A stretch of DNA of 15,625 bases from a virus (Duplodnaviria > Heunggongvirae > Uroviricota > Caudoviricetes): the IMG/VR virus record IMGVR_UViG_3300030294_000003. The stretch is one strand, 5' to 3'. The notes under the pieces were generated by a model. It did not search any database. It worked only from the letters and a program-made list of their open reading frames with translations, and had not been told where the DNA came from. Position numbers and translations under genes: made by a program. Position 1 is the first letter of the stretch. The number at the start of each line of letters is the position of its first letter. Of the stretch, positions 43-14,881 are shown one piece after another.

Positions 43-87
43 CAAATGTACGCTTTTTAATTCATTGTTCAAAATCAAATTTGTTAA
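43..87 (-). promoter_or_regulatory. Promoter module M1
   Basis: TTAACAAATTTGATTTT...TACATTTG, 37-nt spacing. Confidence 0.8.
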
Positions 88-103
88 ATTAAATATTTAG
101 TTT

Positions 104-148
104 TTAACAAATTCTATTTCGGTATATGGATTATTTGCTGTATCTTTA
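104..148 (+). promoter_or_regulatory. Promoter module P1 (drives ncRNA copy 1)
   Basis: TTAACAAATTCTATTTC...TATCTTTAC, 37-nt spacing. Confidence 0.8.
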
Positions 149-161
149 CATTGTAATAAGA

Positions 162-199
162 GAGAGAGTTGGCAGGTTAAACACTGGAGTATTTTCTCC
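162..199 (+). ncRNA. Putative small RNA, copy 1 (conserved core)
   Basis: GAGAGA GTTGG CAG gttaaaca CTG GAGTATTTTCTCC; no ORF downstream of P1. Confidence 0.6.
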
Positions 200-237
200 A
201 ACACGATGTGAAATTTTTCGTTAATAGAAGTTAAAGA

Positions 238-320
238 AAAATCCCTTTCAACCGCTTATCTCTAATTTGCATCTGTGCGCCCAAATGTATTGATTAAAAG
301 TTTGTGTTGAAAGGAATTTT
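238..320. terminator. Long-loop inverted repeat, possible bidirectional terminator
   Basis: AAAATCCCTTTCAAC (238-252) / GTTGAAAGGAATTTT (306-320), 1 mismatch; lies between convergent units. Confidence 0.4.
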
Positions 321-450
321 ATGTTATTATATTTTGATATATATTTTGGTTGGATTTCTAATGTAGTGCATCGGTTACGGGTTTATAGTTTTAAGCTTTA
401 CGGCTGTCCTTTGTTACGTTCCATTTTATTCGTGTGTTTTTAGGCGATTG

Positions 451-540
451 TTAAACGTTGTGAATTACATAAACAGGATTGTTGAGTTCATCGACTCCAA
501 TACAGTACTTAGCTGTTAAAATGTTTTTTTCATATGCCAT
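451..540 (-). CDS. Small hypothetical protein, 29 aa (MAYEKNILTAKYCIGVDELNNPVYVIHNV)
   Basis: Translated by hand; first ATG after the M2 leader. Confidence 0.45.
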   Translation of the reverse strand: MAYEKNILTAKYCIGVDELNNPVYVIHNV

Positions 541-597
541 AAGTTTTAAATGTTAATATTATTTGTTTATATTGTTTAATTACTTTTAATTGATACA

Positions 598-642
598 CAA
601 AGATAGGTAATTATCCTATAATTTGCTAATGGAATTTGTTAA
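598..642 (-). promoter_or_regulatory. Promoter module M2
   Basis: TTAACAAATTCCATT...TATCTTTG, 37-nt spacing. Confidence 0.8.
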
Positions 643-655
643 ATAAAATTGTATT

Positions 656-1264
656 TTATCTTAGTTCCGTTGGTATTTCTTTTTTCCATTCAGAAATTTT
701 ATCTTGAATTAGGTTTATTTCTTTTTCCAAATTTTTAATAGCCAATTTTGCAGCTTCATAGGCTTCATAACTGTATTCTTTTTCTAAACGAGGTTCTACA
801 TCGGCATCAACAAATTTGTTGTCAGAATCAATCATAATTAAGTCAAAAAACGATTTTCTAACATACGTACAATAAGCGGTTGTAAATTTGTGTTCCCCAC
901 CTGAATAATAGCCACCGTTAACACATATTGAAATTTCCAAAGAGGTGTAATCACTTTTTTTATCAAGAAAAAACCATTGTAACCCTTTTCTGTTTTCAAA
1001 TGTTAAGCCAAATTTTTCAGTAAATTCATTGAAAAATTCATCAAAAAATTTAGTTCTATTACCACCCATTACAAACAATTTTTTCCCAATTAAACGGGAT
1101 TTATTTTCCAATAGAAAAGACTGAAAGTTTTTAACCATTTCATTCATTTCTTTACGTGCATTAATAATTCTTATAGCCTGTTCTTTTCTGTATTTGGCAC
1201 GTTCATCAGATTCAAATTTTGCTAATGCTTTATACTCTTCAATTTCTTTGTCAGTCAGTTTCAT
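656..1264 (-). CDS. Hypothetical protein, 202 aa, helical/coiled-coil termini
   Basis: ORF track; own promoter M3 and AT-rich leader. Confidence 0.85.
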   Translation of the reverse strand: MKLTDKEIEEYKALAKFESDERAKYRKEQAIRIINARKEMNEMVKNFQSFLLENKSRLIGKKLFVMGGNRTKFFDEFFNEFTEKFGLTFENRKGLQWFFLDKKSDYTSLEISICVNGGYYSGGEHKFTTAYCTYVRKSFFDLIMIDSDNKFVDADVEPRLEKEYSYEAYEAAKLAIKNLEKEINLIQDKISEWKKEIPTELR

Positions 1265-1302
1265 AAGGCGTTTATTTTAGTTCGTTTTAATTAATCGATA
1301 TA

Positions 1303-1347
1303 CAAAGATAATGTATTTCGTTGGTATTCGAAAATGGGATTTGTTAA
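1303..1347 (-). promoter_or_regulatory. Promoter module M3
   Basis: TTAACAAATCCCATTTT...TATCTTTG, 37-nt spacing. Confidence 0.8.
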
Positions 1348-1799
1348 ATTAATTTTATTAACTCCTGAACAATTACAGAATAAGGAACGTAAAAAGTACC
1401 AATTTCGTTCATTCTTTCAGCTTCACAATTAATCAAATACTGTGCATTCTCCTTTGTTAAATTTTCATACTTTTGGCTGTAATATGGATTAAAAAATTGA
1501 CCGTTGTAACGTTTGGTATCAATTGTTAAATCGTAACGAAATTTATTTTGTCGTACCCATACACCGAAATATGAAAAACTTGAACAATCCCCATCACATG
1601 TTTCGAAATGTCCGTATTTGTTTTCTAAAATACTATCAATTGTTAAAAATGGTAGTTGTTCTAAAAAACGTTGTTCAATCATTTTTTTGTTGTAGTCCTT
1701 ACAAAATTTTTCGTATTCAGATACACCCATCAATTTTTCCAATTTATTTTGGGCATCGATATACAAATCACTTTCAATCCAAACTTCGCTATCATTCAT
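1344..1799 (-). CDS. Hypothetical protein, 151 aa
   Basis: ORF track; promoter M4; stop TAA lies inside the TTAAC of M3. Confidence 0.85.
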   Translation of the reverse strand: MNDSEVWIESDLYIDAQNKLEKLMGVSEYEKFCKDYNKKMIEQRFLEQLPFLTIDSILENKYGHFETCDGDCSSFSYFGVWVRQNKFRYDLTIDTKRYNGQFFNPYYSQKYENLTKENAQYLINCEAERMNEIGTFYVPYSVIVQELIKLI

Positions 1800-1829
1800 A
1801 ATCTTTTGATTTATTAATTAATTGATATA

Positions 1830-1874
1830 CAAATGTAGTGAAATTACCAATACAAAGCAAATGTAATTTGTTAA
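1830..1874 (-). promoter_or_regulatory. Promoter module M4
   Basis: TTAACAAATTACATTTG...TACATTTG, 37-nt spacing. Confidence 0.8.
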
Positions 1875-1901
1875 AAAATGATCTAAATAAAACATATTCT
1901 T

Positions 1902-1946
1902 TTAACAAATTCGGGTTTGAAATACCAATGAAAAGCACTATCTTTG
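1902..1946 (+). promoter_or_regulatory. Promoter module P2 (drives ncRNA copy 2)
   Basis: TTAACAAATTCGGGTTTG-N19-TATCTTTG, 37-nt spacing. Confidence 0.8.
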
Positions 1947-1964
1947 TATCATAAAATAAGAGTA

Positions 1965-2004
1965 GAGAGGTTGGTAGTCGTAACAAAACTAAAGTATTTT
2001 CTCC
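1965..2004 (+). ncRNA. Putative small RNA, copy 2 (conserved core)
   Basis: GAGAG GTTGG TAGT cgtaacaaa ACTA AAGTATTTTCTCC; TAG/CTA is a compensatory change relative to CAG/CTG. Confidence 0.6.
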
Positions 2005-2041
2005 GTTATATAGAATAAAATAATGTTAACTGAAGTTAAAA

Positions 2042-2072: not shown

Positions 2073-2078
2073 CTAAAA

Positions 2079-2174: not shown

Positions 2175-2345
2175 TTACTTTAAATCTGATATATCAAACC
2201 TTGTTACTTTTCCCTCAATCGTATATATTAATCCATTCCAAGTTAAAAATTCATAACCAGCAATTTTTGCCACTTCAATTGCCTTATCAATATGCCCCCA
2301 CATCGATGGGCGTAGCGAACTGTTAAAAATATATTTCCAACTCAT
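2175..2345 (-). CDS. Hypothetical protein, 56 aa (MSWKYIFNSSLRPSMWGH...GYEFLTWNGLIY...)
   Basis: Translated by hand; starts 6 nt after the stop of 2352-2675. Confidence 0.75.
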   Translation of the reverse strand: MSWKYIFNSSLRPSMWGHIDKAIEVAKIAGYEFLTWNGLIYTIEGKVTRFDISDLK

Positions 2346-2351: not shown

Positions 2352-2675
2352 TTAATTAAATTGTTGGTTATAACGTTTTATTTTTTCTTTATATAATTCT
2401 TTCAAATAACGTGAATGATTACGACGTGTAACGATTTTAACATCGTAACCGATTGATTTTAATTCTTTCAATAGGTCTGCATATTCTGATGGTTTTGCAT
2501 TACATGTAAAGTCGTTTATATCCCACCTACAAACAGAATGTTGCTCGACACGCATATAAGAACCTACATAATCTTCCCCCTCAATTTGGTACGGAAAAAC
2601 GGCAATTACTTCTTTATTCCCGTATTTAAATTTCCTGAACTGAACTTCAATTAAAATATTTTTATCTGTTTCCAT
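2352..2675 (-). CDS. Hypothetical protein, 107 aa, resembles a phage family with V.FRK..VIAVFP..SY...QH..A.P.EY..LL.EL..IGY
   Basis: ORF track; promoter M5; family resemblance is from memory, function unknown. Confidence 0.85.
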   Translation of the reverse strand: METDKNILIEVQFRKFKYGNKEVIAVFPYQIEGEDYVGSYMRVEQHSVCRWDINDFTCNAKPSEYADLLKELKSIGYDVKIVTRRNHSRYLKELYKEKIKRYNQQFN

Positions 2676-2705: not shown

Positions 2706-2750
2706 CAAAGATAGTTTAAATTGTCTATTCGTGAAAATGGAATTTGTTAA
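2706..2750 (-). promoter_or_regulatory. Promoter module M5
   Basis: TTAACAAATTCCATTTTCACGAA...TATCTTTG, 37-nt spacing. Confidence 0.8.
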
Positions 2751-3133
2751 TATTTGCTTACGTTTATACCTCTTTCGTGTTGAATTTCGCAAAGTAAATA
2801 ATCTGCATTCATTTCGTTTGGAACACTACAATAGCACTCAAATATTTTTTGCTCTTTATTCGTAACAACTGTTAAATTTCCTTCACAATCGGTTTTAATA
2901 CATTCAATTTTTTCACCGTTGTAAGTACTACCAACATATTTTTGTGGTATTAACGTTTGTTCACTATTCGCTTTTATGTAATAGATATACATATCCAACT
3001 CATTCAATTTACTGTAATCAATTTCATTATCATCAAACCACATATATAATGTATTGATGTCTATTGCTTCTTTAACATTTATTAAATGTTTGTAAGCTTC
3101 AACCAATTCTTCATCTATATAAACTTTTTTCAT
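2747..3133 (-). CDS. Hypothetical protein, 128 aa
   Basis: ORF track; promoter M6; stop inside the TTAAC of M5. Confidence 0.85.
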   Translation of the reverse strand: MKKVYIDEELVEAYKHLINVKEAIDINTLYMWFDDNEIDYSKLNELDMYIYYIKANSEQTLIPQKYVGSTYNGEKIECIKTDCEGNLTVVTNKEQKIFECYCSVPNEMNADYLLCEIQHERGINVSKY

Positions 3134-3165: not shown

Positions 3166-3210
3166 CAAATGTACTATATTTAAACCATTCGTGAAAATGG
3201 AATTTGTTAA
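3166..3210 (-). promoter_or_regulatory. Promoter module M6
   Basis: TTAACAAATTCCATTTTCACGAA...TACATTTG, 37-nt spacing. Confidence 0.8.
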
Positions 3211-3211: not shown

Positions 3212-3472
3212 TTATGATTCTAAATCGGAAAAATATTCGACCACATCATCGTAAAACTTTTCAGTAATTCCACCAAATGTATAAAGATGTTCATTAACCT
3301 TAACTTCCATTAAATTGATACCCGCTTTTTCAATAATTGTATTCATTCCTTGAGGTCTTAAATAGAATACATTTTTATTTAATGCATACATTAGAATAAT
3401 TTCATCGATTAAAAATAATAAATGTTCAACAACTTGTTTTTCACTTGAATTGGTAGGGTTAATATTTTTCAT
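3212..3472 (-). CDS. Hypothetical protein, 86 aa
   Basis: ORF track; tightly linked to 3478-3762. Confidence 0.8.
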   Translation of the reverse strand: MKNINPTNSSEKQVVEHLLFLIDEIILMYALNKNVFYLRPQGMNTIIEKAGINLMEVKVNEHLYTFGGITEKFYDDVVEYFSDLES

Positions 3473-3477: not shown

Positions 3478-3762
3478 TTAATATTTAAGAGTTTCTTTGT
3501 TAAATTGTTCAACTGAAATTATTTCAATTTGTGCTCTGCTTGCATCATAAGACATTCCACTATTATCTTTATACTTTTCACTACCATCTTCTTTTAATTG
3601 CTTGTGAGCATATTGAATTGCTTTTTTGGCTTGTGAAATAGTATTATAATACAAAATATAAGAATAAAACATTCCATTTCTGTTAAAAATAGAACCACCC
3701 AAATTATTAACAAGTTTGTGATTCCCGTTAATTTGACCTGTCACTCTAATAATTGCTTTCAT
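3478..3762 (-). CDS. Hypothetical protein, 94 aa
   Basis: ORF track; promoter M7. Confidence 0.8.
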   Translation of the reverse strand: MKAIIRVTGQINGNHKLVNNLGGSIFNRNGMFYSYILYYNTISQAKKAIQYAHKQLKEDGSEKYKDNSGMSYDASRAQIEIISVEQFNKETLKY

Positions 3763-3788: not shown

Positions 3789-3833
3789 CAAAGATAATAT
3801 TTTCACTTCATTCCTTAAAATGAAATATGTTAA
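3789..3833 (-). promoter_or_regulatory. Promoter module M7
   Basis: TTAACATATTTCATTTT...TATCTTTG, 37-nt spacing. Confidence 0.8.
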
Positions 3834-4000
3834 TATTTAAAAAAGTGTGCTGTTAATTTCATTGTCGTTGGTACGTTAACTTCTTTAAAACGTTCCTTTG
3901 CAGCCTTACATGTTTTGGATTGTTCAGTACTACATATATAACAACCATCTAAAAAAATATCAATTTTGTAGCAACCTGTTTGACTGTTATATTTTTTCAT
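3830..4000 (-). CDS. Hypothetical Cys-containing protein, 56 aa (MKKYNSQTGCYKIDIFLDGCYICSTEQSKTCKAAK...)
   Basis: Translated by hand; promoter M8; stop inside the TTAAC of M7. Confidence 0.75.
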   Translation of the reverse strand: MKKYNSQTGCYKIDIFLDGCYICSTEQSKTCKAAKERFKEVNVPTTMKLTAHFFKY

Positions 4001-4033: not shown

Positions 4034-4078
4034 CAAAGATACGGGAAATATTTCATTCCCGCAACTCTTATTTGTTAA
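4034..4078 (-). promoter_or_regulatory. Promoter module M8 (hairpin in spacer)
   Basis: TTAACAAATAAGAGTTGCGGGAA...TTCCCGTATCTTTG, 37-nt spacing. Confidence 0.75.
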
Positions 4079-4712: not shown

Positions 4713-4757
4713 TAAAAGTAATGAAAAATACCCATTAACGAAAATGGAATTTGTTAA
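4713..4757 (-). promoter_or_regulatory. Promoter module M9
   Basis: TTAACAAATTCCATTTT...TACTTTTAC, 37-nt spacing. Confidence 0.75.
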
Positions 4758-4930
4758 AGTTTATCAACTGCATTTATAAAATCTGCAACCTCAATTCCAC
4801 CGATACAATAGTCACCGTTTGGTAAATAAATGTATTGACTGAAATGTTCTTTCGTATGGTTAACAAGTTGAAAAACTTTGTGGTTGTCAATCATATAATT
4901 GAAAATCGCTTTTTTAAGTTCTAAGTTCAT
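4754..4930 (-). CDS. Hypothetical protein, 58 aa (MNLELKKAIFNYMIDNH...GDYCIGGIEVADFINAVDKL)
   Basis: Translated by hand; stop inside the TTAAC of M9. Confidence 0.75.
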   Translation of the reverse strand: MNLELKKAIFNYMIDNHKVFQLVNHTKEHFSQYIYLPNGDYCIGGIEVADFINAVDKL

Positions 4931-4951: not shown

Positions 4952-5167
4952 TTAATAATCAATTGATTTAGAATTATAATAATTAACTTCTAACCAATTT
5001 TCAACCTCTTTATTAAAATTTTCTAATTCATCATTATCTTCTGCATCAGGAATGTTAACGCCTTCTAATTCGCCTAAAAAAATGTTTTTTTCCCAAATAT
5101 CAATTCCGCCATCAAATTGTTTACAAATAAATTCATCCACCCCAACAAAAACACTAATTGTATTCAT
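4952..5167 (-). CDS. Acidic hypothetical protein, 71 aa
   Basis: ORF track; promoter M10; 17 D/E vs 4 K/R. Confidence 0.8.
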   Translation of the reverse strand: MNTISVFVGVDEFICKQFDGGIDIWEKNIFLGELEGVNIPDAEDNDELENFNKEVENWLEVNYYNSKSIDY

Positions 5168-5206: not shown

Positions 5207-5251
5207 TAAAAGTAAACAAAAGCATCTACAACTGCAAATGCTTTTTGTTAA
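5207..5251 (-). promoter_or_regulatory. Promoter module M10 (hairpin in spacer)
   Basis: TTAACAAAAAGCATTTG-N20-TACTTTTAC, 37-nt spacing. Confidence 0.75.
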
Positions 5252-5266: not shown

Positions 5267-5797
5267 TTATCTGAATGGATTGTAATTAACATCTTCCAAC
5301 GATTTAATAGCTTCAACATCCAATTGTAATTCACTAAAGTAATTCCAGCCATTGGATAACCCTTTTTCACATAGTTCAATAAATGGGTCGTATAATGGTT
5401 TTAAATCTTCAAATTTTGAACCGCAATACATTACGTTAGCTTTTAAATCAACTATTGCCATCATTCTGATATAACCATAAAAATATTGAATTTCATTATT
5501 ATCAAATAATTCAATGTTTTCATTAACAAATTTGCAACCTTTGTTTATTGATTCTATACCGTTAAAATCAAATGCCATTGTTTTGATATGGTTATCATCG
5601 TTGTAATAACGAACCAACAAAGCGTAATAAGTTGATTTTTTTGGTGCGCACAATTTACCTGTTTTCGGGTCAATAGTTTGTGTAACGTGCCTGTAACCCT
5701 TTTTAGGGCTAAATTCCATAGAATCATACAAAGTGGTTTTTAATCGAAATCCCCAAGGGTAATTCTCAACTGCAATTTTTTCACTTGTCTTAATCAT
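5267..5797 (-). CDS. Hypothetical protein, 176 aa, resembles a phage family with YPWGF..E...KG.R...QT..PKKSTY
   Basis: ORF track; promoter M11; family resemblance is from memory. Confidence 0.85.
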   Translation of the reverse strand: MIKTSEKIAVENYPWGFRLKTTLYDSMEFSPKKGYRHVTQTIDPKTGKLCAPKKSTYYALLVRYYNDDNHIKTMAFDFNGIESINKGCKFVNENIELFDNNEIQYFYGYIRMMAIVDLKANVMYCGSKFEDLKPLYDPFIELCEKGLSNGWNYFSELQLDVEAIKSLEDVNYNPFR

Positions 5798-5850: not shown

Positions 5851-5895
5851 CAAAAATAGTGTTTAACATTGATATATCAAAATGGAATTTGTTAA
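5851..5895 (-). promoter_or_regulatory. Promoter module M11
   Basis: TTAACAAATTCCATTTT...GTTAAACACTATTTTTG, 37-nt spacing. Confidence 0.8.
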
Positions 5896-6509: not shown

Positions 6510-6554
6510 TTAACAAATTCCATTTTACTAATCCATTATATTATATTACTTTTA
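6510..6554 (+). promoter_or_regulatory. Promoter module P3
   Basis: TTAACAAATTCCATTTT...TACTTTTAC, 37-nt spacing. Confidence 0.75.
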
Positions 6555-6580: not shown

Positions 6581-6934
6581 ATGGAAAAGAAATCTATTTT
6601 CACAATTGAAGTTTATAACATGACAGGTGGAAAGTTCAATAGTGTTACAAACACGTTTAGCAGTGCTTTAAACGCTTTAGAAAACATTCTTTGTAACCTA
6701 CAAGCGCAAAGTAAATTTGAGCATTATCAGGTCTTTATTCAAGAGTCAAAATTTGATAAAAACGGATTGTTGGTTATGAAAACAAAAGTTAACCGTTTTA
6801 ATTTGAATGTTTTTTCAGAATTTGAATTAACAAATGATAGTCATCAATTTCATTTTATTGCAATGGATTTAATTGAAAAAATGAATAAAAGAATTGAATT
6901 GAATGATGGAATAAAATGGGATTTGTTAAAATAA
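6581..6934 (+). CDS. Hypothetical protein, 117 aa (start revised to MEKKSIF)
   Basis: The track start at 6479 lies upstream of promoter P3; ATG 6581 follows the leader. Confidence 0.75.
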   Translation: MEKKSIFTIEVYNMTGGKFNSVTNTFSSALNALENILCNLQAQSKFEHYQVFIQESKFDKNGLLVMKTKVNRFNLNVFSEFELTNDSHQFHFIAMDLIEKMNKRIELNDGIKWDLLK

Positions 6935-6947: not shown

Positions 6948-6992
6948 TTAACAAAAAGGGTTTGCAGAAGTAAGCCCTTTTCTGTATCTTTG
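6948..6992 (+). promoter_or_regulatory. Promoter module P4 (terminator-like hairpin in spacer; drives ncRNA copy 3)
   Basis: TTAACAAAAAGGGTTTG-N20-TATCTTTG, 37-nt spacing. Confidence 0.8.
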
Positions 6993-7010
6993 TATTACAA
7001 TAATGGATGA

Positions 7011-7051
7011 GAGAGGTTGACAGGATGCACAAATCCTGAAGTATGGTCTCC
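7011..7051 (+). ncRNA. Putative small RNA, copy 3 (conserved core)
   Basis: GAGAG GTTGA CAGGAT gcacaa ATCCTG AAGTATGGTCTCC; 6-bp hairpin. Confidence 0.6.
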
Positions 7052-7092
7052 TTGACATCTAAACTTTTTTTGTTAAAAAAACTTAATAAAAA

Positions 7093-7149: not shown

Positions 7150-7509
7150 TTAAATAAAGCTATCAATTATTCTTTTTATTTCATTTTTATTTTGTTTAAT
7201 CATTTCGTCACTTTCCTGAAATTTAGCACTTAATTTAATAGTTGGGTCAGCATTTTTAACACTGTTAACTAATTTGTTTTTTGATGCTACATCGAAAAAT
7301 TTACTAACAAATCTTTCCTGTTCATAAATTAACGTTTCAAGTCTTACAAGTTCAAAAATTTTGAGTAGGTATTTTTTAACATCTATTTCCTTTGTGTAAT
7401 TCATCGACCGTGGGGAAATTCCGTAATTGAAAATACGGCTACCTTCGTCCGTTGTAACTTCAAAACCAATGGTTTTAAAATCGTTGTCTTTAACTAAAAT
7501 TGCTTTCAT
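7150..7509 (-). CDS. Hypothetical protein, 119 aa
   Basis: ORF track; promoter M13. Confidence 0.85.
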   Translation of the reverse strand: MKAILVKDNDFKTIGFEVTTDEGSRIFNYGISPRSMNYTKEIDVKKYLLKIFELVRLETLIYEQERFVSKFFDVASKNKLVNSVKNADPTIKLSAKFQESDEMIKQNKNEIKRIIDSFI

Positions 7510-7557: not shown

Positions 7558-7602
7558 CAAAGATAATCTTTTGAATCCATTCGTGAAAATGGAATTTGTT
7601 AA
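7558..7602 (-). promoter_or_regulatory. Promoter module M13
   Basis: TTAACAAATTCCATTTTCACGAA...TATCTTTG, 37-nt spacing. Confidence 0.8.
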
Positions 7603-7619: not shown

Positions 7620-7664
7620 TTAACAAATTCCATTTCGGTATATGGTTGAAATGAATTACTTTTA
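7620..7664 (+). promoter_or_regulatory. Promoter module P5
   Basis: TTAACAAATTCCATTTCGGTATATGG...TACTTTTAC, 37-nt spacing. Confidence 0.75.
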
Positions 7665-7693: not shown

Positions 7694-7894
7694 ATGAAAA
7701 CGTTAACAGTATTGCAGCAAATAAATATTTTATTGAAGCATGCCAATAGAAACGGTTTAGAAATTAAATTTTTTAACGTTCACGACAATTGTGTATTTGC
7801 TAATTTATATAATCCTGAAAAAGATGTTTATTCTTATCAAACGGTTTTTTGTGTTATTGATGATTGTGAATATAAATTTACTTTAATACCTTAA
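7694..7894 (+). CDS. Hypothetical protein, 66 aa
   Basis: ORF track; promoter P5. Confidence 0.8.
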   Translation: MKTLTVLQQINILLKHANRNGLEIKFFNVHDNCVFANLYNPEKDVYSYQTVFCVIDDCEYKFTLIP

Positions 7895-7910
7895 TTAAAA
7901 AAAATTGGTT

Positions 7911-8099
7911 ATGAAAACAATTATAATAAACGAATGGTTAAAATTCACATACCGTGAAGATAGAAGTGTTAAATTTGAACCTGCATACCGCAATGGGGCA
8001 TATATTAACGTTTTTATACATTCAGATGAATGTGAAAAATTCTTAAAGGAAAATGATATTAATTATCAAATCAGTAACAAAAACAATATTGATAAATGA
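7911..8099 (+). CDS. Hypothetical protein, 62 aa (start revised to ATG 7911)
   Basis: ORF track 7905 uses TTG; ATG 7911 is in frame; stop overlaps the next start (ATGA). Confidence 0.75.
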   Translation: MKTIIINEWLKFTYREDRSVKFEPAYRNGAYINVFIHSDECEKFLKENDINYQISNKNNIDK

Positions 8100-8371
8100 A
8101 AAACTATGTACGTTTTTATGAAATGTCAACAGGTAAATGGGTTGATGGAAAAATGAATTGGGATATGAAATATCCTATTGAGGGTTGTGGTAGTGATTCT
8201 GTAATGTATTACGATGGGCGTTTGAATTTATCATCAATATGTTATCAGGCAAGACAAAGAATCATTCAAATGAATGCAGTTAATAGAATAGTAGGCTTTA
8301 AAGTCTATAAAAACGGTAATGAAGTTTATTCAACCGTTCCAACCGCAAAAAATTGCTTAAAATATGAATAA
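8096..8371 (+). CDS. Hypothetical protein, 91 aa (YVRFY..STG...GSDSV..YDGR motif)
   Basis: ORF track; translationally coupled to the previous ORF. Confidence 0.85.
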   Translation: MKNYVRFYEMSTGKWVDGKMNWDMKYPIEGCGSDSVMYYDGRLNLSSICYQARQRIIQMNAVNRIVGFKVYKNGNEVYSTVPTAKNCLKYE

Positions 8372-8372: not shown

Positions 8373-8388
8373 ATACTCGAATGAGTAT
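8373..8388. repeat. Palindrome ATACTC-GAAT-GAGTAT, copy 1
   Basis: Recurs at 9240, 13579 (inverted) and 14184. Confidence 0.75.
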
Positions 8389-8401: not shown

Positions 8402-8446
8402 TTAACATATTCCATTTGTACCAACGATTAAAATATATTACTTTTA
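8402..8446 (+). promoter_or_regulatory. Promoter module P6
   Basis: TTAACATATTCCATTTG-N20-TACTTTTAC, 37-nt spacing. Confidence 0.75.
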
Positions 8447-8471: not shown

Positions 8472-8696
8472 ATGAAAAAAGACTTTTTAAAAATAGGGTT
8501 ACGATTTTATGTTGAGGATGAAATAAACACTTTTAGCGTTGTTTCCTTTGATTCAGAATCTATGTACATTTATTCCGAATTATTAAAAGAGAATATTGAA
8601 AAACCTTTTAAGGTCTCTCACTTTTATAAACAAGTCTCTGATGGTTTTTTAACTATTTCTACAGACAAGTCTCTGATGTTTATTCAACAATTTTAA
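8472..8696 (+). CDS. Hypothetical protein, 74 aa
   Basis: ORF track; promoter P6. Confidence 0.8.
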   Translation: MKKDFLKIGLRFYVEDEINTFSVVSFDSESMYIYSELLKENIEKPFKVSHFYKQVSDGFLTISTDKSLMFIQQF

Positions 8697-8721: not shown

Positions 8722-9051
8722 ATGACAGATTTAACAATTGCCCAACAGTGGGAAGCGGTGAATAAAATGAATTTTTTTGAGATTGAAGTTGTAGACCAAC
8801 GAACCAACGAACAGGATTATATCATTTTTAACATTGATATTGATTCAAAAGTTGATGGAACGCCTGTTTTTAGAGCCGAACACGTTGCACTTAGTGAAGC
8901 AGAAGAAAAAAGTCCATTGGTAGCTTTTTGTTATTCTGAGATTGATGAAAACTTCTCGTTGGATCAAAATCTAGGTTCATTGATGGATGAATGTGTTGAT
9001 GCTATAATCAATAGTGAATTTTATGAATTTCCAAAAGATGAAGAAGAATAA
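8722..9051 (+). CDS. Strongly acidic hypothetical protein, 109 aa
   Basis: ORF track; 27 D/E vs 6 K/R. Confidence 0.85.
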   Translation: MTDLTIAQQWEAVNKMNFFEIEVVDQRTNEQDYIIFNIDIDSKVDGTPVFRAEHVALSEAEEKSPLVAFCYSEIDENFSLDQNLGSLMDECVDAIINSEFYEFPKDEEE

Positions 9052-9059: not shown

Positions 9060-9233
9060 ATGGTACAAACAACTAATAATCATCTAACAGTATACAAATA
9101 CCTATCAGAAACCGCTGATAGGAGATGTAGAAAATATAAAGAACTTGATAAACAATTGGATAAACTTAGTGAAAAATATGGTAAAGAATCCAAAGAAGTA
9201 AACGATTTTTTTAATCAATTTATTATCCTATAA
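9060..9233 (+). CDS. Hypothetical protein, 57 aa (MVQTTNNHLTVYKYLSETADRRCRKYKELDKQLDKL...)
   Basis: Translated by hand; starts 8 nt after the previous stop. Confidence 0.7.
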   Translation: MVQTTNNHLTVYKYLSETADRRCRKYKELDKQLDKLSEKYGKESKEVNDFFNQFIIL

Positions 9234-9239: not shown

Positions 9240-9255
9240 ATACTCGAATGAGTAT
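9240..9255. repeat. Palindrome ATACTC-GAAT-GAGTAT, copy 2
   Basis: Identical to 8373-8388. Confidence 0.75.
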
Positions 9256-9265: not shown

Positions 9266-9310
9266 TTAACAAAAATGGTTTGTGAAAATGAATCCTTTTC
9301 TTTACTTTTG
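9266..9310 (+). promoter_or_regulatory. Promoter module P7
   Basis: TTAACAAAAATGGTTTG-N20-TACTTTTG, 37-nt spacing. Confidence 0.8.
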
Positions 9311-9339: not shown

Positions 9340-9762
9340 ATGAAAAGGCAATTTAAAATTATAACAAGTGTAGCTACACACATTTGTACTATCAACAAAA
9401 AGAATGACATCTTTTTTGATGTATTTGAAAGGGAAATAGAAAATATGGGTAATGCTGATGAAAAATTTATTGTTGAAAATATGGATGGTAAAATACTATT
9501 CACTGATACAGATGTTAAAGAATGGGAAAATGATGGTGGTGTTTATATTTGTCGCTTTTGTGGTAAGCGTATTGAAAGTGAACACGATGTATATGTTGAG
9601 GATGGTGCAAGTGAGTGTCATTGTGAGGACTGCCATCCGATTCTATTCCCAAATGATGATGTATGGCAAGCTTTATATAAAAAGTACAACATCGACAGCG
9701 AAACAGGCGAAGAGCGTAATAACTTTTATGGTGAATATTATTATTGGACTACTGCACCGTAA
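9340..9762 (+). CDS. Hypothetical protein, 140 aa, putative Zn ribbon (CRFC...CEDC)
   Basis: ORF track; two CxxC motifs; promoter P7. Confidence 0.85.
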   Translation: MKRQFKIITSVATHICTINKKNDIFFDVFEREIENMGNADEKFIVENMDGKILFTDTDVKEWENDGGVYICRFCGKRIESEHDVYVEDGASECHCEDCHPILFPNDDVWQALYKKYNIDSETGEERNNFYGEYYYWTTAP

Positions 9763-9767: not shown

Positions 9768-9812
9768 TTAACAAATTCTATTTCGATATATCATTGTTAA
9801 AGCTTATCTTTG
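9768..9812 (+). promoter_or_regulatory. Promoter module P8
   Basis: TTAACAAATTCTATTTC...GTTAAAGCTTATCTTTG, 37-nt spacing. Confidence 0.8.
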
Positions 9813-9849: not shown

Positions 9850-10110
9850 ATGTCAGAAAAAGAAAAATATAATTTTTTTCTCGATGGTGATTTATCCCAA
9901 ATGTCATTTCAAAGGACATTCTTAAATAATCGTGGAATCAGTACAGAACAAAACAATGTCTACCCATGTTTAAGGCAATGTGATGTTAAAAATGCTTTAA
10001 CTTTAATATGGGAACAAAGTTGTGATGGTTGGTGGCATTACAAAAAAAAGTATGTTGAATTAGAAATTTGTACCGCTGAAGAATATAACAGCAAATTATC
10101 AAGATGGTAA
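9850..10110 (+). CDS. Hypothetical protein, 86 aa
   Basis: ORF track; promoter P8. Confidence 0.8.
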   Translation: MSEKEKYNFFLDGDLSQMSFQRTFLNNRGISTEQNNVYPCLRQCDVKNALTLIWEQSCDGWWHYKKKYVELEICTAEEYNSKLSRW

Positions 10111-10123: not shown

Positions 10124-10168
10124 TTAACAAATTCTATTTTCATACATCAATGTTAAAGCTTATCTTTG
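10124..10168 (+). promoter_or_regulatory. Promoter module P9
   Basis: TTAACAAATTCTATTTT...GTTAAAGCTTATCTTTG, 37-nt spacing. Confidence 0.8.
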
Positions 10169-10202
10169 TCATATCAATTTAATTAATTCAAATAAACATA
10201 TT

Positions 10203-10361
10203 ATGTCAGAAAGAGAATGCGCAATAAAAGTAGGTGAAGCAGTTTTACAACTTCTTAATCTTGAAATAAATAAAGTTGGTTTAATACCTACAGTGTGGGG
10301 TGATAAGACCGTTGAGGGGTTAGGATTCACTATTATGGGAATTGTAGAAATAAATAAATAA
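10203..10361 (+). CDS. Hypothetical protein, 52 aa (...GLIPTVWGDKTVEGLG...)
   Basis: Translated by hand; first ORF after P9. Confidence 0.75.
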   Translation: MSERECAIKVGEAVLQLLNLEINKVGLIPTVWGDKTVEGLGFTIMGIVEINK

Positions 10362-10367
10362 TGTTTT

Positions 10368-10670
10368 ATGAAAAATCCGTATAAAGTAAGCTATCAAAAA
10401 CATTGGTCTGAAGATGGTACAGTGTATACCCAACGTGTTAAAATTTCACGTGAAGATTATTTAACATTTTGTGAAGAAATGGATTTGGAATTTATTAACA
10501 AATTTCCATTTAAAAAACATTATTGTCATACCGATTCTGATACAATCTACATGAGGTCAAAAGATACCAATGCAAAGGTCGTTTACTTAAAATCAACTGA
10601 AACACGTTTTTTTTGTTTTATGATGATGATTAATCTAAAAGATAGAAACACTTATTTAGTTATAGCTTAA
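10368..10670 (+). CDS. Hypothetical protein, 100 aa
   Basis: ORF track. Confidence 0.75.
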   Translation: MKNPYKVSYQKHWSEDGTVYTQRVKISREDYLTFCEEMDLEFINKFPFKKHYCHTDSDTIYMRSKDTNAKVVYLKSTETRFFCFMMMINLKDRNTYLVIA

Positions 10671-10685
10671 ACTAATAATATATTT

Positions 10686-10967
10686 ATGAAAAAACTTAAA
10701 ATTACAAAAGGCGAATGGTTTATAAGTGGTGATAAATATCCAACTATACAATCAAAAAATACAAATGAAAATATCGTTGTAACATATCCTACAATTGCTA
10801 CAATAAATTCAACGTTTATTGATGAAATAGAATATAAAGCAAATGCAAAACTAATTGCTGCATCGCCAAAAATGCTTGCGGCACTTGAAGTGTTAATGGA
10901 AAATTCAAGTAATCTACATGAGTTCCAAAAAATTTATATTCAGGAAGCTCTTGATGCAGCACTTTAA
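10686..10967 (+). CDS. Phage protein of the widespread 'H/ITPGPW...ANARLIAAAPELL' family, 93 aa, function unknown
   Basis: ITKGEW near the N-terminus and ANAKLIAASPKMLAAL match the motif as I recall it. Confidence 0.8.
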   Translation: MKKLKITKGEWFISGDKYPTIQSKNTNENIVVTYPTIATINSTFIDEIEYKANAKLIAASPKMLAALEVLMENSSNLHEFQKIYIQEALDAAL

Positions 10968-11017
10968 TTTTAATTAATTATATAGTCCAAATTGATAATT
11001 GTTAAAATATAAATATT

Positions 11018-11158
11018 ATGATTGATTTTAATTGCCTTTCAGAAAATAGCGAAGTTGTTCTTTTATTAAAACAGAGAGAAGAATTAGATAAAAAGATAAA
11101 TGAATTAGATGAATTTGCATTGCTACTATATGAAATTGCTAAGTTGAACGAAGAATAA
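11018..11158 (+). CDS. Hypothetical coiled-coil peptide, 46 aa (MIDFNCLSENSEVVLLLKQREELDKKINELD...)
   Basis: Translated by hand; heptad-like pattern. Confidence 0.65.
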   Translation: MIDFNCLSENSEVVLLLKQREELDKKINELDEFALLLYEIAKLNEE

Positions 11159-11185
11159 AAAACAAGTAAATAATAATAATATATT

Positions 11186-11464
11186 ATGAGCGAACAAGAA
11201 ATTAAATATAAACAAATGCTCAACAACGTGGCATTGTTAACAGATTATAATGACCACACAGAAGCTCGTATAGCCATTGCAAAGTTCTTTGGTATGCGTA
11301 ATAGGATTGATGATTTAGAATCATTACAACGTCAACAAAATAGGCTTGGGTATATGACAGAAGACCTATTGAAAGAACGTGCCGAAATAACAAAGACAAT
11401 ATACAATCGTTTGATTTTTACTTGTGGTATTGAAATAGCTAAAGAAGTAATGTCAAAACTTTAA
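11186..11464 (+). CDS. Hypothetical protein, 92 aa (LTDYNDHTEA motif)
   Basis: ORF track; stop inside the TTAAC of P10. Confidence 0.85.
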   Translation: MSEQEIKYKQMLNNVALLTDYNDHTEARIAIAKFFGMRNRIDDLESLQRQQNRLGYMTEDLLKERAEITKTIYNRLIFTCGIEIAKEVMSKL

Positions 11465-11505
11465 CAAATTACATTTTAGTATATCACTGTTAAAGCGTAT
11501 CTTTG
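11461..11505 (+). promoter_or_regulatory. Promoter module P10
   Basis: TTAACAAATTACATTTT...GTTAAAGCGTATCTTTG, 37-nt spacing. Confidence 0.8.
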
Positions 11506-11538: not shown

Positions 11539-11700
11539 ATGAAAAATAAAGCACACGTATTTCAACACAGAACTTCGGGTCTACAAATGTTCGTTTATCA
11601 TCAACCTTCAGAAGATTTAGCAAAATCTGAGTTATATGGTATTGTAGCAAATAGTAGCGATTGGATTTATTTAGGACAAAAAACGGCACAAGATGCATAA
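11539..11700 (+). CDS. Hypothetical protein, 53 aa (MKNKAHVFQHRTSGLQMFVYH...)
   Basis: Translated by hand; sole ORF between P10 and P11. Confidence 0.7.
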   Translation: MKNKAHVFQHRTSGLQMFVYHQPSEDLAKSELYGIVANSSDWIYLGQKTAQDA

Positions 11701-11799: not shown

Positions 11800-12021
11800 A
11801 TGGCAAAGAAAAATCTTATTACATTAGCAAAAGGGTTGGATTTTACAACCGAATCAGAATATTTTGATTATCTTATTGATTCATATCTCTATGGTAATTT
11901 CAATCAATGTAAAAGACTTTTCAATGATATGAAAAAAGAAGCCCAAAAGAAATTTATTAAGTATGTTGATAATTCATATACTAATAAAGACATTATGGAT
12001 TTTTATTTCAACCTATTGTAA
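11800..12021 (+). CDS. Hypothetical protein, 73 aa
   Basis: ORF track; promoter P11; TAATG overlap with the next gene. Confidence 0.85.
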   Translation: MAKKNLITLAKGLDFTTESEYFDYLIDSYLYGNFNQCKRLFNDMKKEAQKKFIKYVDNSYTNKDIMDFYFNLL

Positions 12022-12317
12022 TGAAAAACGTAATTATAATTGGTGCTGGCGGTACGTATGGAACATCTACAACCATTGCACAACGCATTATAGAAGCACG
12101 AGAACAGGGTATTGAAGTTGTGGAGTATAAACCAAACAGCGAACAAAGTAAAATATTAGAACTTGCAGACCAACTAAACAGCTTAACAGAGCGTGAAAAC
12201 AAAGCTATGAGAGAAGCAGAACCTTTTATACTTCAGTCAATTCCACACGATGAAATACCATTCTATCCAAATAAAAAAATCAAAGGTTATCAACAGCCTT
12301 ATAAATTCCACAAATAA
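12021..12317 (+). CDS. Hypothetical protein, 98 aa, Rossmann-like N-terminal glycine motif
   Basis: ORF track; MKNVIIIGAGGTYG. Confidence 0.8.
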   Translation: MKNVIIIGAGGTYGTSTTIAQRIIEAREQGIEVVEYKPNSEQSKILELADQLNSLTERENKAMREAEPFILQSIPHDEIPFYPNKKIKGYQQPYKFHK

Positions 12318-12318
12318 T

Positions 12319-12537
12319 ATGGGGTTAAGATGTGAACAACACGTTGAGGATGGTTATAGTTACAACAGGTTTACAGACACACAAATGAGACCTATTTTTA
12401 GACAATGTAAATACAATGCAAAATACAAAGTCAAAGCAGAGAATACAAAAGGTTATGTAAGCGAAATGAACGTTTGTACAAAACACAAAAACAATTTAAT
12501 TAAACGATTTAAAATAATTGATATTCAAATAATTTAA
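12319..12537 (+). CDS. Hypothetical Cys/His protein, 72 aa (start revised to MGLRCEQH)
   Basis: In-frame ATG 1 nt after the previous stop; CxxH...CxxH; stop inside the TTAAC of P12. Confidence 0.75.
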   Translation: MGLRCEQHVEDGYSYNRFTDTQMRPIFRQCKYNAKYKVKAENTKGYVSEMNVCTKHKNNLIKRFKIIDIQII

Positions 12538-12578: not shown

Positions 12579-12594
12579 TATCATAATAAAGGTA

Positions 12595-12632
12595 GAGAGG
12601 TTGGCAGACAATAAATCTGGAGTATATTCTCC
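12595..12632 (+). ncRNA. Putative small RNA, copy 4 (conserved core)
   Basis: GAGAG GTTGG CAGA caataaa TCTG GAGTATATTCTCC. Confidence 0.6.
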
Positions 12633-12680
12633 GTTGGATACTATATATCAATTGTTAAAAAAATAATTATTGAACCAAAA

Positions 12681-12747: not shown

Positions 12748-12792
12748 CAAAGGTAGTCAAAACAATTCATATAACCAAATATTTTCAGTTAA
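12748..12792 (-). promoter_or_regulatory. Promoter module M14 (drives ncRNA copy 5)
   Basis: TTAACTGAAAATATTTG-N20-TACCTTTG, 37-nt spacing. Confidence 0.75.
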
Positions 12793-12820
12793 AAGATCTT
12801 AATAAAAATTTATTGTAATT

Positions 12821-12865
12821 TTAACAAATTCTATTTCCACAATTGAAGTTAATACCGTACTTTTG
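12821..12865 (+). promoter_or_regulatory. Promoter module P13
   Basis: TTAACAAATTCTATTTC...TACTTTTG, 37-nt spacing. Confidence 0.8.
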
Positions 12866-12908
12866 TAAGGTAATCAAATAAAAGTAATTAAAACAAAACA
12901 TTATAGTT

Positions 12909-13157
12909 ATGGCAACAAATAAAACAACATTAGTAAACGAATTACAAGGGGCATTAGACCGCTTTAACAGAAACCTTGAACCATCAGGTAGATGTGTACA
13001 AATTCAGGCTAGAAACGGCTACATAGCGTTGGATATGTATAGTATTAAAACAGGCAAATGTATTGACTTCTATACGTCAACAGATACCAACAAACAAATG
13101 TTAAATTTACTTTACGCTTTAAGTAAAGCAATTGAACTTGTTAATAATCCAATCTAA
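12909..13157 (+). CDS. Hypothetical protein, 82 aa
   Basis: ORF track; promoter P13. Confidence 0.8.
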   Translation: MATNKTTLVNELQGALDRFNRNLEPSGRCVQIQARNGYIALDMYSIKTGKCIDFYTSTDTNKQMLNLLYALSKAIELVNNPI

Positions 13158-13170
13158 AATAAAATATATT

Positions 13171-13293
13171 ATGGAAATAGAAGAAATTGTTAAAATTATT
13201 GATGGTATTAAACCATTGTCATTTTTTAACCAAAATGAAAAAGATGTATTTCAACTTGCACTTGATTTGGTGAAAGCAGCAATTGAGGGTTAA
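13171..13293 (+). CDS. Hypothetical protein, 40 aa (MEIEEIVKIIDGIKPLSFFNQNEKDVFQLALDLVKAAIEG)
   Basis: Translated by hand. Confidence 0.65.
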   Translation: MEIEEIVKIIDGIKPLSFFNQNEKDVFQLALDLVKAAIEG

Positions 13294-13302
13294 TCAATAT
13301 TT

Positions 13303-13325
13303 TGTCAAAAAATCCTTTTTTGACA
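13303..13325. terminator. Hairpin TGTCAAAAAA-TCC-TTTTTTGACA
   Basis: Perfect 10-bp arms, 9 nt after a stop; near-identical copy at 13820. Confidence 0.45.
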
Positions 13326-13377
13326 TTTATTAAAATTTCATTTTAATAACACATAAAATAATTAAATAAGTAATTAA

Positions 13378-13569
13378 ATGAAAGCATACAAAACAATCAC
13401 ATATTCAGGCGTTGACCTTACAATAAGCAAAAAGGTTGCAATGGACGGACTACAGTATTTTTGTATCATTCGCAAAGATAACAAACGTATTGTAGCACGT
13501 TATAAACTACTTCGTGAAGCGGTTTGGCAATTGGATAACTTTGTGAAATATCCTATATTACCTTTATAA
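13378..13569 (+). CDS. Basic hypothetical protein, 63 aa
   Basis: ORF track. Confidence 0.75.
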   Translation: MKAYKTITYSGVDLTISKKVAMDGLQYFCIIRKDNKRIVARYKLLREAVWQLDNFVKYPILPL

Positions 13570-13578
13570 TATGATTCA

Positions 13579-13594
13579 ATACTCATTCGAGTAC
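13579..13594. repeat. Palindrome copy 3 (ATACTC-ATTC-GAGTAC, inverted spacer)
   Basis: The 14-bp core is the reverse complement of TACTCGAATGAGTA. Confidence 0.7.
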
Positions 13595-13618
13595 CTATAA
13601 ACCATTTAAACAAATAAT

Positions 13619-13786
13619 ATGAAAAACAATTTTGAAGTTACTTTTGAGGGTCGGGTATATTATTACAATCGTGTTTTAATTATATGGGATTGGGATTGGT
13701 TTTGGAAACCGTTATTATTAACGAACACTGAAACGAATGTTAAAACTTTGTTTATTCTATTTGTAAAATTCCAATGGAAGTATTAA
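13619..13786 (+). CDS. Trp-rich hydrophobic peptide, 55 aa (...RVLIIWDWDWFWKPLLL...)
   Basis: Translated by hand; AT-rich leader. Confidence 0.55.
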   Translation: MKNNFEVTFEGRVYYYNRVLIIWDWDWFWKPLLLTNTETNVKTLFILFVKFQWKY

Positions 13787-13796
13787 TAATCAATTT

Positions 13797-13841
13797 TGGG
13801 GTTAAAATTTTAACCCCATTGTCAAAAATATCTTTTTGACA
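13797..13841. terminator. Tandem hairpins: 22-bp perfect palindrome plus TGTCAAAAA-TATC-TTTTTGACA
   Basis: TGGGGTTAAAATTTTAACCCCA (13797-13818) and 13820-13841, immediately after the last gene of the block. Confidence 0.5.
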
Positions 13842-14128
13842 TAATTAACATACGTTTACTTTACAAGTGAAAAAATTCCTTATGCGGTATGCTAACAATA
13901 TGATAGTTTAAATATGTTTTTATTAACATTATGATAATTTAACTTTTTTATGCTACAAATGTAAAGTTAGTTAAATAAGGTTAAATATTTATTTAACCAA
14001 AATTTTGTTAAAAATTTAACATACATGACCGTCCTCCTCCCTCATTTCGCTACGCTCATTCTCTCACTCTTTCAGAGTTCGTATTATTATATACCATTTA
14101 TTCTCTAATTAACTATACTATATATAAA

Positions 14129-14172
14129 AAAGGTAACAAAAATAGTCTATTTACACACTTTTTGTTACCTTT
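14129..14172. repeat. 14-bp-arm inverted repeat AAAGGTAACAAAAA / TTTTTGTTACCTTT
   Basis: Perfect arms with a 16-nt loop; the right arm overlaps a TACCTTTG box (14166-14173). Confidence 0.65.
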
Positions 14173-14183
14173 GTAATATGCAG

Positions 14184-14199
14184 ATACTCAAATGAGTAC
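14184..14199. repeat. Palindrome copy 4 (ATACTC-AAAT-GAGTAC)
   Basis: 2 mismatches to copies 1 and 2. Confidence 0.7.
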
Positions 14200-14369
14200 G
14201 TTAAATATGAGTTGTTTTTACCTTATTTTACGTAATAAATGTATATATGTTAAAAAACATGTTAATATTTTTACTATAAACATTTCATTATAAGCACACA
14301 TACAGTACCAAATTCAAAGAGGTAAATTTTTGTAATGCGAGCGTGTCATATATAAAACAAATATTTTAT

Positions 14370-14414
14370 TTAACAAATTCCATTTCCTATAATGGTTTTA
14401 ATAGTTTATCTTTG
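14370..14414 (+). promoter_or_regulatory. Promoter module P14
   Basis: TTAACAAATTCCATTTC...TATCTTTG, 37-nt spacing. Confidence 0.8.
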
Positions 14415-14445
14415 TCATATCAAATATAATTAAAACAATAGTCTT

Positions 14446-14835
14446 ATGGAATACGTTGGTTTGTTACCTGATAATTTTATGATATATTTAGAGCAGTATA
14501 GAAAGACTGATTCTAATATTAATATAATTACTGACTTTAACAATGGTAATAACGCTCATTGTTTTAAACTTAGTACATCTATACCTTATGAGATTTATTC
14601 TTTGGGTAGTGGCAATTCTAAATATACAACTGTTATATATAGAGAAGTATTTAATAGTTTAATTCAGAAATTAAAATATAACCTTGTAAATAATGGACAG
14701 AAGTTGTATTCAGATAAGCTGACAATTATAAAAAGAATGTATTTTGAAATTGTTGATAAAAATGTTAATATGGTTTGTGAGTTTATTGAAGTTAAAGCTA
14801 TTATTATTGGAAATTGGGATTACAAAACTAATTAA
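14446..14835 (+). CDS. Hypothetical protein, 129 aa
   Basis: ORF track; promoter P14. Confidence 0.8.
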   Translation: MEYVGLLPDNFMIYLEQYRKTDSNINIITDFNNGNNAHCFKLSTSIPYEIYSLGSGNSKYTTVIYREVFNSLIQKLKYNLVNNGQKLYSDKLTIIKRMYFEIVDKNVNMVCEFIEVKAIIIGNWDYKTN

Positions 14836-14836
14836 T

Positions 14837-14881
14837 TTAACAAATTCCATTTCTATATATCAACGTTAAACAGTATCTTTG
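14837..14881 (+). promoter_or_regulatory. Promoter module P15
   Basis: TTAACAAATTCCATTTC...GTTAAACAGTATCTTTG, 37-nt spacing. Confidence 0.8.

Follow-up and report, generated by a model that had tools for sequence, protein, structure and literature searches.

The window analysed here is a stretch of 15,625 nucleotides (nt) of DNA from a virus of the class Caudoviricetes (IMG/VR record IMGVR_UViG_3300030294_000003). It has a G+C content of 27% and is dense in small open reading frames (ORFs), between which a promoter-like module is repeated that consists of the sequence TTAAC followed by a -33 box and a -7 box. The copies form two arrays, one on the minus strand (7602 down to 43) and one on the plus strand (7620 up to 14881), and point in opposite directions from mid-window. 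Comparison with a phage collection gave no nucleotide or protein match to the window, ten of its larger ORFs belong to no convincing Pfam or PHROG family, and no tRNA or Rfam family was found in it above threshold.

A regular-expression scan of the window for TTAAC-N32-TAnnTTT identified 29 matches, 15 on the plus strand and 14 on the minus strand, from 43-87(-) to 14837-14881(+). This corresponds to one module per 539 bp of the region 43-14881 and reproduces a first-pass annotation of this DNA, which had counted 14 minus-strand and 15 plus-strand copies, about one per 540 bp, each with TTAAC starting 37 nt before the -7 box. All other TTAAC spacings from 25 to 49 yielded zero to two matches apiece, and 200 dinucleotide-preserving shuffles of the window averaged 0.57 modules and never contained more than three. 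Scores from a weight matrix built on the copies are sharply bimodal: the 29 modules reach 29-56 bits and the next site in the window 10.7 bits. The latter is a decayed module at 6885-6929(-) (TTAACAAATCCCATTTT) that lacks a -7 box and lies within the 3' end of gene 6581-6934. The weight-matrix scan of the window found no site that has the -33 and -7 parts without TTAAC.

The aligned copies have the consensus tTTAACAAATTCCATTTn-N20-TAyyTTTG-tAT, after which an A-rich leader begins. The -7 box reads TAnnTTT in all 29 copies, with G (22 copies) or A (7 copies) as its last base. The -33 box has TTT at offsets 13-15 in 27 of the 29 and is separated from the -7 box by 20 nt in all of them, and its fourth base is G in just nine. 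TTAAC stands at a fixed offset of 8 bp from the -33 box, which gives the module the form TTAAC-N8-TTTG-N20-TAnnTTTG. Placed on the start-site scale of Flavobacterium psychrophilum, TTAAC covers positions -49 to -45, the linker AAATTCCA -44 to -37, TTTn -36 to -33 and TAnnTTTG -12 to -5. Spacers of different copies are 0.40 identical, against an expected 0.30. Six modules (5895(-), 9768, 10124, 11461, 11716 and 14837(+)) make up a subfamily whose spacer (ATATCAnnGTTAAA) has ATATCAnnGTTAAAsC in common; the inverted TTAAC at about -21 to -16 in this subfamily could be a second site for whatever protein reads TTAAC, or could reflect shared descent.

We compared the module with promoters of the presumptive host phylum. 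Mapped transcription starts in F. psychrophilum have TAnnTTTG at -12 to -5 and a median leader of 24 nt (PMC9723704), and a Flavobacterium rRNA promoter has the TTTG-N20-TAnnTTTG geometry of the modules, with an A-tract upstream. The first-pass assignment of the core to the Bacteroidota -33/-7 type agrees with these features: TAnnTTT is invariant, the TTT of the -33 box is nearly so, and the 20-nt spacer is that of the rRNA promoter. The TTAAC box, by contrast, lies outside the ordinary Bacteroidota promoter consensus. It is missing from 56 promoter-like Flavobacterium sites and unenriched at 723 -7 boxes, as anticipated by the earlier proposal that the upstream block is an extra phased element foreign to the host consensus. 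When 21 spacings before TAnnTTTG were counted across a Flavobacterium genome of 5.7 Mb, TTAAC occurred 252 times, fewer than the reversed control.

The position of the modules relative to genes is equally regular. In 22 cases an ATG-initiated ORF of at least 30 amino acids (aa) begins 25-53 nt past the -7 box; two further modules precede a 29-aa ORF and an ORF that runs off the start of the window. The median 5' untranslated region of mapped Flavobacterium and Bacteroides promoters is about 24-32 nt (PMC9723704). The leaders that follow the modules are A-rich and have no Shine-Dalgarno sequence, as expected in Bacteroidota (PMC6847099). The remaining five modules have no ORF after them and instead precede a small-RNA-like element of the form GAGAGAGGTTGGCAG-loop-CTGGAGTATTTTCTCC (coordinates in Table 1), so that the annotated rule of small ORFs or an RNA element behind every copy is borne out at 24 and five modules, respectively. 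The element combines an outer 5-bp stem with an inner 3-bp stem; the latter is CAG/CUG, replaced in some copies by CGG/CCG or UAG/CUA, which is a compensatory change. It has no Rfam match and is conserved in three phage lineages, represented by the window and by two further phage loci, L009 and L021 (1355-1434).

Genes upstream of modules all end between -35 and +1 of TTAAC. Nine upstream frames stop on the TAA of TTAAC itself, at modules 1347, 2750, 3833, 4078, 4757, 5895(-), 11461, 12534(+) and 5251(-), the last after a frame of 50 codons; nine of about 19 is no clear excess over the one third expected from frame alone for abutting genes. Five pairs of modules stand back to back, with TTAAC-to-TTAAC gaps of 16, 17, 17, 27 and 28 bp. 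These gaps fall into two classes one helical turn apart, which is a hint at most, as there are only five pairs and they were looked at post hoc.

We next considered how far the module extends into other phages. The locus L009, from peat (L010 and L011 are the same sequence), is related to the window at about 70% protein identity and has 22 strict modules at spacing 37, besides about a dozen in which TTCAC, TTAAG or TTAAA takes the place of the box; TTAAC is thus not absolutely invariant in evolution. L021 has a module of the form TTAAC-TAAAATAG-TTTG-N20-TATCTTTR. Three IMG/VR records, G002 and G003 (215-220 kb) and G005, contain about 40-61 modules each, of the form TTAAC-(A/T)CAAAATA-TTTGG-N19-TAyCTTT. 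Across these lineages, several of them unrelated, TTAAC, TTTG and the -7 box stay in one register, and the linker (AAATT in the window) is specific to the lineage. Of the block TTAAC(AAATTCYA) described in the first-pass annotation, the TTAAC part therefore holds up as a conserved unit and the AAATTCYA part varies by phage lineage. The full window consensus, which includes this variable linker, is for that reason nearly absent elsewhere, with five single matches in IMG/VR and three single matches in genomes; a scan of metagenomes returned distant relatives only. A 176-aa orphan protein encoded at 5267-5797(-) has more than 100 homologues, which lie on phage-like contigs with G+C contents of 26-49% and come from peat, freshwater and marine samples. 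The protein is spread far more widely than the module, which is absent from the distant carriers L013-L016. Module-bearing loci have almost no early proteins in common: when the early-region ORFs of 20 such loci were clustered, no protein proved to be widely shared.

Other phages have TTAAC in two or three copies, 10-11 bp apart. These phased tandems stand 37 and 47 nt from the -7 box in L209/L155, L173, L174 and L170, 38 and 27 in L012, L056 and L067, 38 and 49 in L065, and 37 and 26 in L086. A copy at 26 or 27 takes the place of the -33 TTTG.

A matching element occurs in Bacteroidota host genomes. Scanning one genome per species for TTAAC-N6-TTAACA-N21-TAnCTTTG returned at least 120 stretches (L237-L356), mostly a single one in a given genome; about 117 of those listed are from Bacteroidota, of many different families. 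A control with an 8-bp period returned 50 stretches from mixed taxa. Among the matches listed, the downstream genes encode YtxH-like proteins (13) and MoxR AAA ATPases (10-11), as well as two lipoprotein families, DUF1573 proteins, thioredoxin-like proteins and one OmpR-family regulator. In orthologous host promoters (13 YtxH-like, 10 MoxR and six others) the boxes are invariant and the 21 nt between them and the -7 box vary essentially freely. Of the 117 host sites listed, 25 have a third TTAAC at 10-11 bp ahead of the pair, and the number of direct repeats at phage and host sites ranges from two to four. A full-length OmpR-family gene stands within 1-2.5 kb at about 20 of 120 listed loci, of at least eight locus types, and at none in the 400-kb control; in Bacteroidales one such gene stands next to the gene for a 244-aa lipoprotein. 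Direct repeats of GTTAA or TTAACA with an 11-bp period are a known type of OmpR-family site, and the PhoP site of Bacillus subtilis consists of TT(A/T/C)ACA repeats. The OmpR-family protein SaeR binds GTTAA-N6-GTTAA (PMC5083920). The double-box phage and host sites resemble these SaeR and PhoP sites in their half-site letters (TTAAC/TTAACA), in the 11-bp direct-repeat period and in overlapping the -35-type position or immediately preceding it; the window modules differ from OmpR/PhoB-family sites in combining a single box with a normal -33 element. The host tandem looks like the site of an undescribed Bacteroidota regulon.

Taken together, these observations suggest, with a probability of roughly 0.72, that the 29 modules are early promoters of a large lytic Bacteroidota phage that are used by the host sigma factor and have TTAAC as a protein-read third box. 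The safest statement is that TTAAC is a third, helically phased box, read by a protein and common to many Bacteroidota phages and a few host promoters. In this interpretation the host's RNA polymerase, carrying the primary sigma factor, would recognise the modules through TTTn (-36 to -33) and TAnnTTTG (-12 to -5), firing two arrays that diverge from mid-window. Each module would start a short transcript, which would begin with an A-rich leader without a Shine-Dalgarno sequence and carry either one to five tiny orphan genes or a structured RNA of about 60 nt. TTAAC, at -49 to -45 and always 8 bp ahead of the -33 box, would be bound as the third box by a reader that recruits or stabilises polymerase from upstream, and would mark the promoter class for joint control. 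It may be the unit of a Bacteroidota cis-element whose tandem copies lie on one face of the helix and in hosts often adjoin OmpR-family genes. Terminator-like hairpins in the spacers of a few modules may insulate cassettes from one another, and recombination at modules would be at most a by-product.

This arrangement recalls phage T4, whose early promoters, in an account attributed to Hinton (2010), are reportedly strong sigma-70 promoters that recur many times and resemble UP elements in their upstream parts. In both cases dozens of near-consensus host-type promoters precede short operons of small, non-essential early genes, and a conserved sequence lies upstream of the -35-type box. The modules differ from the T4 promoters in that their core is of the Bacteroidota -33/-7 type, in that a separate box of 5 bp, with an invariant C and a fixed register, stands upstream where T4 has an A/T tract, and in that the same box recurs in phased tandems at host promoters.

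Most likely, TTAAC is an activating site read by a protein, either a half-site of the response-regulator type or an UP-like contact. A host winged-helix protein of the response-regulator type is the best-supported candidate for reading the tandem form, and as the reader generally it is our leading candidate, albeit at somewhat less than even odds. OmpR-family response regulators normally require two half-sites. The single-box modules offer such a regulator one good half-site, so that an UP-like contact with the RNA polymerase alpha subunit, or a phage factor, stays a serious possibility. UP elements are read by the alpha C-terminal domain, as at E. coli rrnB P1, and we consider this domain a weaker candidate, with perhaps one chance in four of being the reader. 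In its favour, the interval from -49 to -37 spans the proximal subsite, the extra copies in other phages are phased by 10-11 bp, the linker is A-rich in most lineages and the phage promoters are presumably strong. TTAAC differs from a typical UP element in that its letters are specific, with an invariant C, and in that it is absent at a Flavobacterium rRNA promoter and at ordinary host promoters. UP elements are also mentioned for the Bacteroides phage promoter P_BfP1E6 (bioRxiv 10.1101/2025.03.18.644028). TTAAC is missing upstream of the rRNA, pstS and alkaline phosphatase genes of one Flavobacterium, so these data do not establish it as a general UP element or as a Pho box. Two further assignments were rejected: a Pho-type regulon, given that one Flavobacterium has no TTAAC tandem before pstS or alkaline phosphatase, and an extracytoplasmic function (ECF) sigma factor recognising the AAC letters, given the 32 nt between TTAAC and the -7 box. 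The broader notion that many Bacteroidota phages tie their whole early programme to a host winged-helix regulator, or to another conserved reader of TTAAC repeats, is tentative and rather unlikely in this full form. On that notion, the single-box form would act together with sigma on the -33 box, and the double-box form would take the place of that box.

Several results weigh against the interpretation of the modules as host-read three-box early promoters. What is observed directly is the motif with its geometry, where it stands with respect to genes, and where it occurs among phages and hosts; that the modules act as promoters, that they do so early and what reads TTAAC are inferred from this. 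The sequence occurs in DNA runs of peat metagenomes and in no RNA run, and the indirect placing of start sites and timing counts against the interpretation. So does the tolerance of TTCAC and TTAAG in L009. The host controls are negative: TTAAC is absent upstream of the rRNA promoter in one Flavobacterium genome, which is not that of the phage's host; it stands at distance 37 at none of the 56 TTG-N19-21-TAnnTTTG sites in 400 kb of one Flavobacterium genome; it has no peak at any distance before the 723 TAnnTTTG sites of the 400-kb Flavobacterium sample; and the regions upstream of pstS and alkaline phosphatase in one Flavobacterium contain no TTAAC repeats. None of the window's 29 modules has a second TTAAC at plus or minus 10-11 bp, each having a single box. 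The excess of host matches over the 8-bp control has a lower bound of about 2.4-fold, and the orthologous loci among them are non-independent. Finally, four phage records contain no OmpR-type (Trans_reg_C) domain, which leaves room for a phage factor of a non-OmpR type.

A reader made by the phage is the basis of the alternative that survives best, although we consider it improbable, at about one chance in five: a phage protein, injected or made from a few first promoters, would read TTAAC and activate or later silence the whole class, and the likeness to host sites would be mimicry or coincidence. There is precedent in T4, which switches promoter classes by MotA/AsiA or by ADP-ribosylation of alpha. 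In favour of this alternative, every promoter of the class in the window carries TTAAC and no -33/-7 site lacks it, and TTAAC is rare in host promoters of the Flavobacterium sample. The inverted GTTAA in the spacers of six to eight modules makes an inverted-repeat operator conceivable. The same box is found, however, in phages with almost no early genes in common, which a host reader fits better; no OmpR-type candidate was found in the four records; and host genomes have kept this architecture at sites away from any phage.

The first-pass annotation had also suggested that the modules serve as joints for gene shuffling, by analogy with the PeSL elements of RB49-like phages. Under this explanation they would be mainly portable recombination joints at which cassettes of promoter plus genes are excised, inserted and reordered. 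L009, the only relative with enough sequence for block comparison, is about 73% identical and has 13 genes in common with the window in rearranged order, and a three-gene insert specific to the window has modules on both flanks. The orthologous blocks have 26 ends, six of them no more than 6 bp away from the TTAAC edge and four at the -7/leader side of a module. About ten others, however, lie at gene starts or stops without a module, and the rest in genes or non-coding DNA. Since modules occupy most of the intergenic space, the ten or so ends at modules represent no enrichment over gene junctions generally, and modules are not favoured over other junctions. Aligned in register, two modules are exactly identical over a median of 11 bp and over 27 bp at most, and 13 of 406 pairs attain at least 20 bp. 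Efficient homologous exchange by RecA has a minimum of about 23-27 bp, and these lengths are under it as a rule. Some DNA contigs of four peat metagenome runs did join one module to another in register (41 to 596 and, in three of the runs, 10144 to 11497), but their foreign letters and short sides indicate contigs from diverged relatives and not recent exchange. Gene order is the same in all 24 contigs that encode an identical window protein, and no recent structural variant was found among them.

In phages RB49 and phi1, PeSL units combine a repeated early promoter with a stem-loop and are dense among orphan genes of a hyperplastic region (Arbiol et al., 2010, PMC2839356). The window likewise has a repeated early-type promoter among orphan genes, its gene content is very different from that of its relatives, and four or five modules contain nested hairpins. 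In contrast to PeSL, in which the hairpin is upstream, those four or five of the 29 modules have it inside the -33/-7 spacer, the exact sequence common to modules is short, and breakpoints are not enriched at modules. PeSL-type recombination is thus possible as a by-product at most and is not supported as a function; as the main role of the modules we judge it improbable, and a little more so than a phage-encoded reader. The weakest alternative, that the fixed geometry and common block merely record recent duplication of one promoter with a functionless TTAAC, could draw on the spacer subfamilies (such as the six modules with ATATCAnnGTTAAA) and on the excess of spacer identity, but is very improbable given that all 29 copies retain TTAAC in its register although most of their spacers are near random, and that TTAAC persists with other linkers in distant lineages and with free spacers in orthologous host promoters.

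To our knowledge, promoters of Bacteroidota phages are almost unstudied, and a limited literature search found no paper on TTAAC-box promoters or TTAAC repeats in Bacteroidota or their phages. This analysis adds that the arrays diverge, that the box is distinct from its linker, that it is spread among phages and forms phased tandems there, and that hosts have a matching element beside regulator genes. A three-box rule, or tandem TTAAC replacing the -33 box, would reveal early regions in thousands of uncultured phage genomes and would supply compact, strong promoters for Bacteroidota genetics. The host element would be a phylum-wide, previously undescribed, probable response-regulator site at genes for YtxH-like, MoxR and envelope proteins. 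If phages borrow it, this would tie the early transcription of the phage to signalling in the host, whose state, for example envelope stress caused by infection, might gate or boost that transcription.

Table 1. Positions of the 29 TTAAC modules in the window and the genes or elements that each is predicted to drive.
Module	Strand	Predicted to drive	Remarks
43-87	-	ORF from ~17 running off window start	divergent partner 104(+)
104-148	+	small-RNA-like element ~153-232	
598-642	-	29-aa ORF 451-540(-)	-33 box TTAG
1303-1347	-	656-1264(-), 202 aa	stop of upstream gene is TAA of TTAAC
1830-1874	-	1344-1799(-)	divergent partner 1902(+), gap 27
1902-1946	+	small-RNA-like element ~1951-2034	
2706-2750	-	2352-2675(-), 2175-2345(-)	
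3166-3210	-	2747-3133(-)	
3789-3833	-	3478-3762(-), 3212-3472(-)	
4034-4078	-	3830-4000(-)	strong CGGGAA...TTCCCG hairpin in -33/-7 spacer
4713-4757	-	four small ORFs, as far as 4075(-)	
5207-5251	-	4952-5167(-), 4754-4930(-)	nested terminator-like hairpin, z = -4.8
5851-5895	-	5267-5797(-), 176 aa	widespread phage gene
6448-6492	-	6126-6419(-), 5892-6113(-)	divergent partner 6510(+), gap 17
6510-6554	+	6581-6934(+)	
6948-6992	+	small-RNA-like element ~6997-7080	nested terminator-like hairpin, z = -6.1
7558-7602	-	7150-7509(-)	divergent partner 7620(+), gap 17
7620-7664	+	7694-7894, 7905-8099, 8096-8371	
8402-8446	+	8472-8696, 8722-9051, 9060-9233	TACTCGAATGAGTA hairpin before it at 8374
9266-9310	+	9340-9762	TACTCGAATGAGTA hairpin before it at 9241
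9768-9812	+	9850-10110	spacer subfamily ATATCAnnGTTAAA
10124-10168	+	up to five ORFs, 10203-11464	spacer subfamily ATATCAnnGTTAAA
11461-11505	+	11539-11700	spacer subfamily ATATCAnnGTTAAA
11716-11760	+	11800-12021, 12021-12317, 12250-12537	spacer subfamily ATATCAnnGTTAAA
12534-12578	+	small-RNA-like element ~12583-12664	
12748-12792	-	small-RNA-like element ~12743-12652(-)	linker TGAAAATA; divergent partner 12821(+), gap 28
12821-12865	+	12909-13157 through 13619-13786	
14370-14414	+	14446-14835	
14837-14881	+	14930-15229, then 15260 onward	

Folding of all 29 modules gave a mean z score of -1.1, with values below -2 in five. Strong hairpins followed by T-runs are nested in the -33/-7 spacer of three modules (4078, 5251 and 6948; z of -3 to -6), and the orthologous modules of L009 keep the nested hairpins with different loops. 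This pattern fits terminators placed within the next promoter.

A second kind of hairpin, TACTC-N4-GAGTA (TACTCGAATGAGTA), occurs in four exact copies (8374-8387, 9241-9254, 13580-13593 and 14185-14198) where none is expected. Two of them stand 25-28 nt before modules 8402 and 9266, and another separates two genes without a module. The last copy falls within a segment of 580 nt without ORFs (13787-14369) that contains the strong hairpins GGGGTTAAAATTTTAACCCC and AAAGGTAACAAAAA...TTTTTGTTACCTTT and a C-rich tract (14029-14080) atypical of DNA with 27% G+C. Part of this segment (13980-14222) is conserved with a gene-free segment of L009 (7484-7713).

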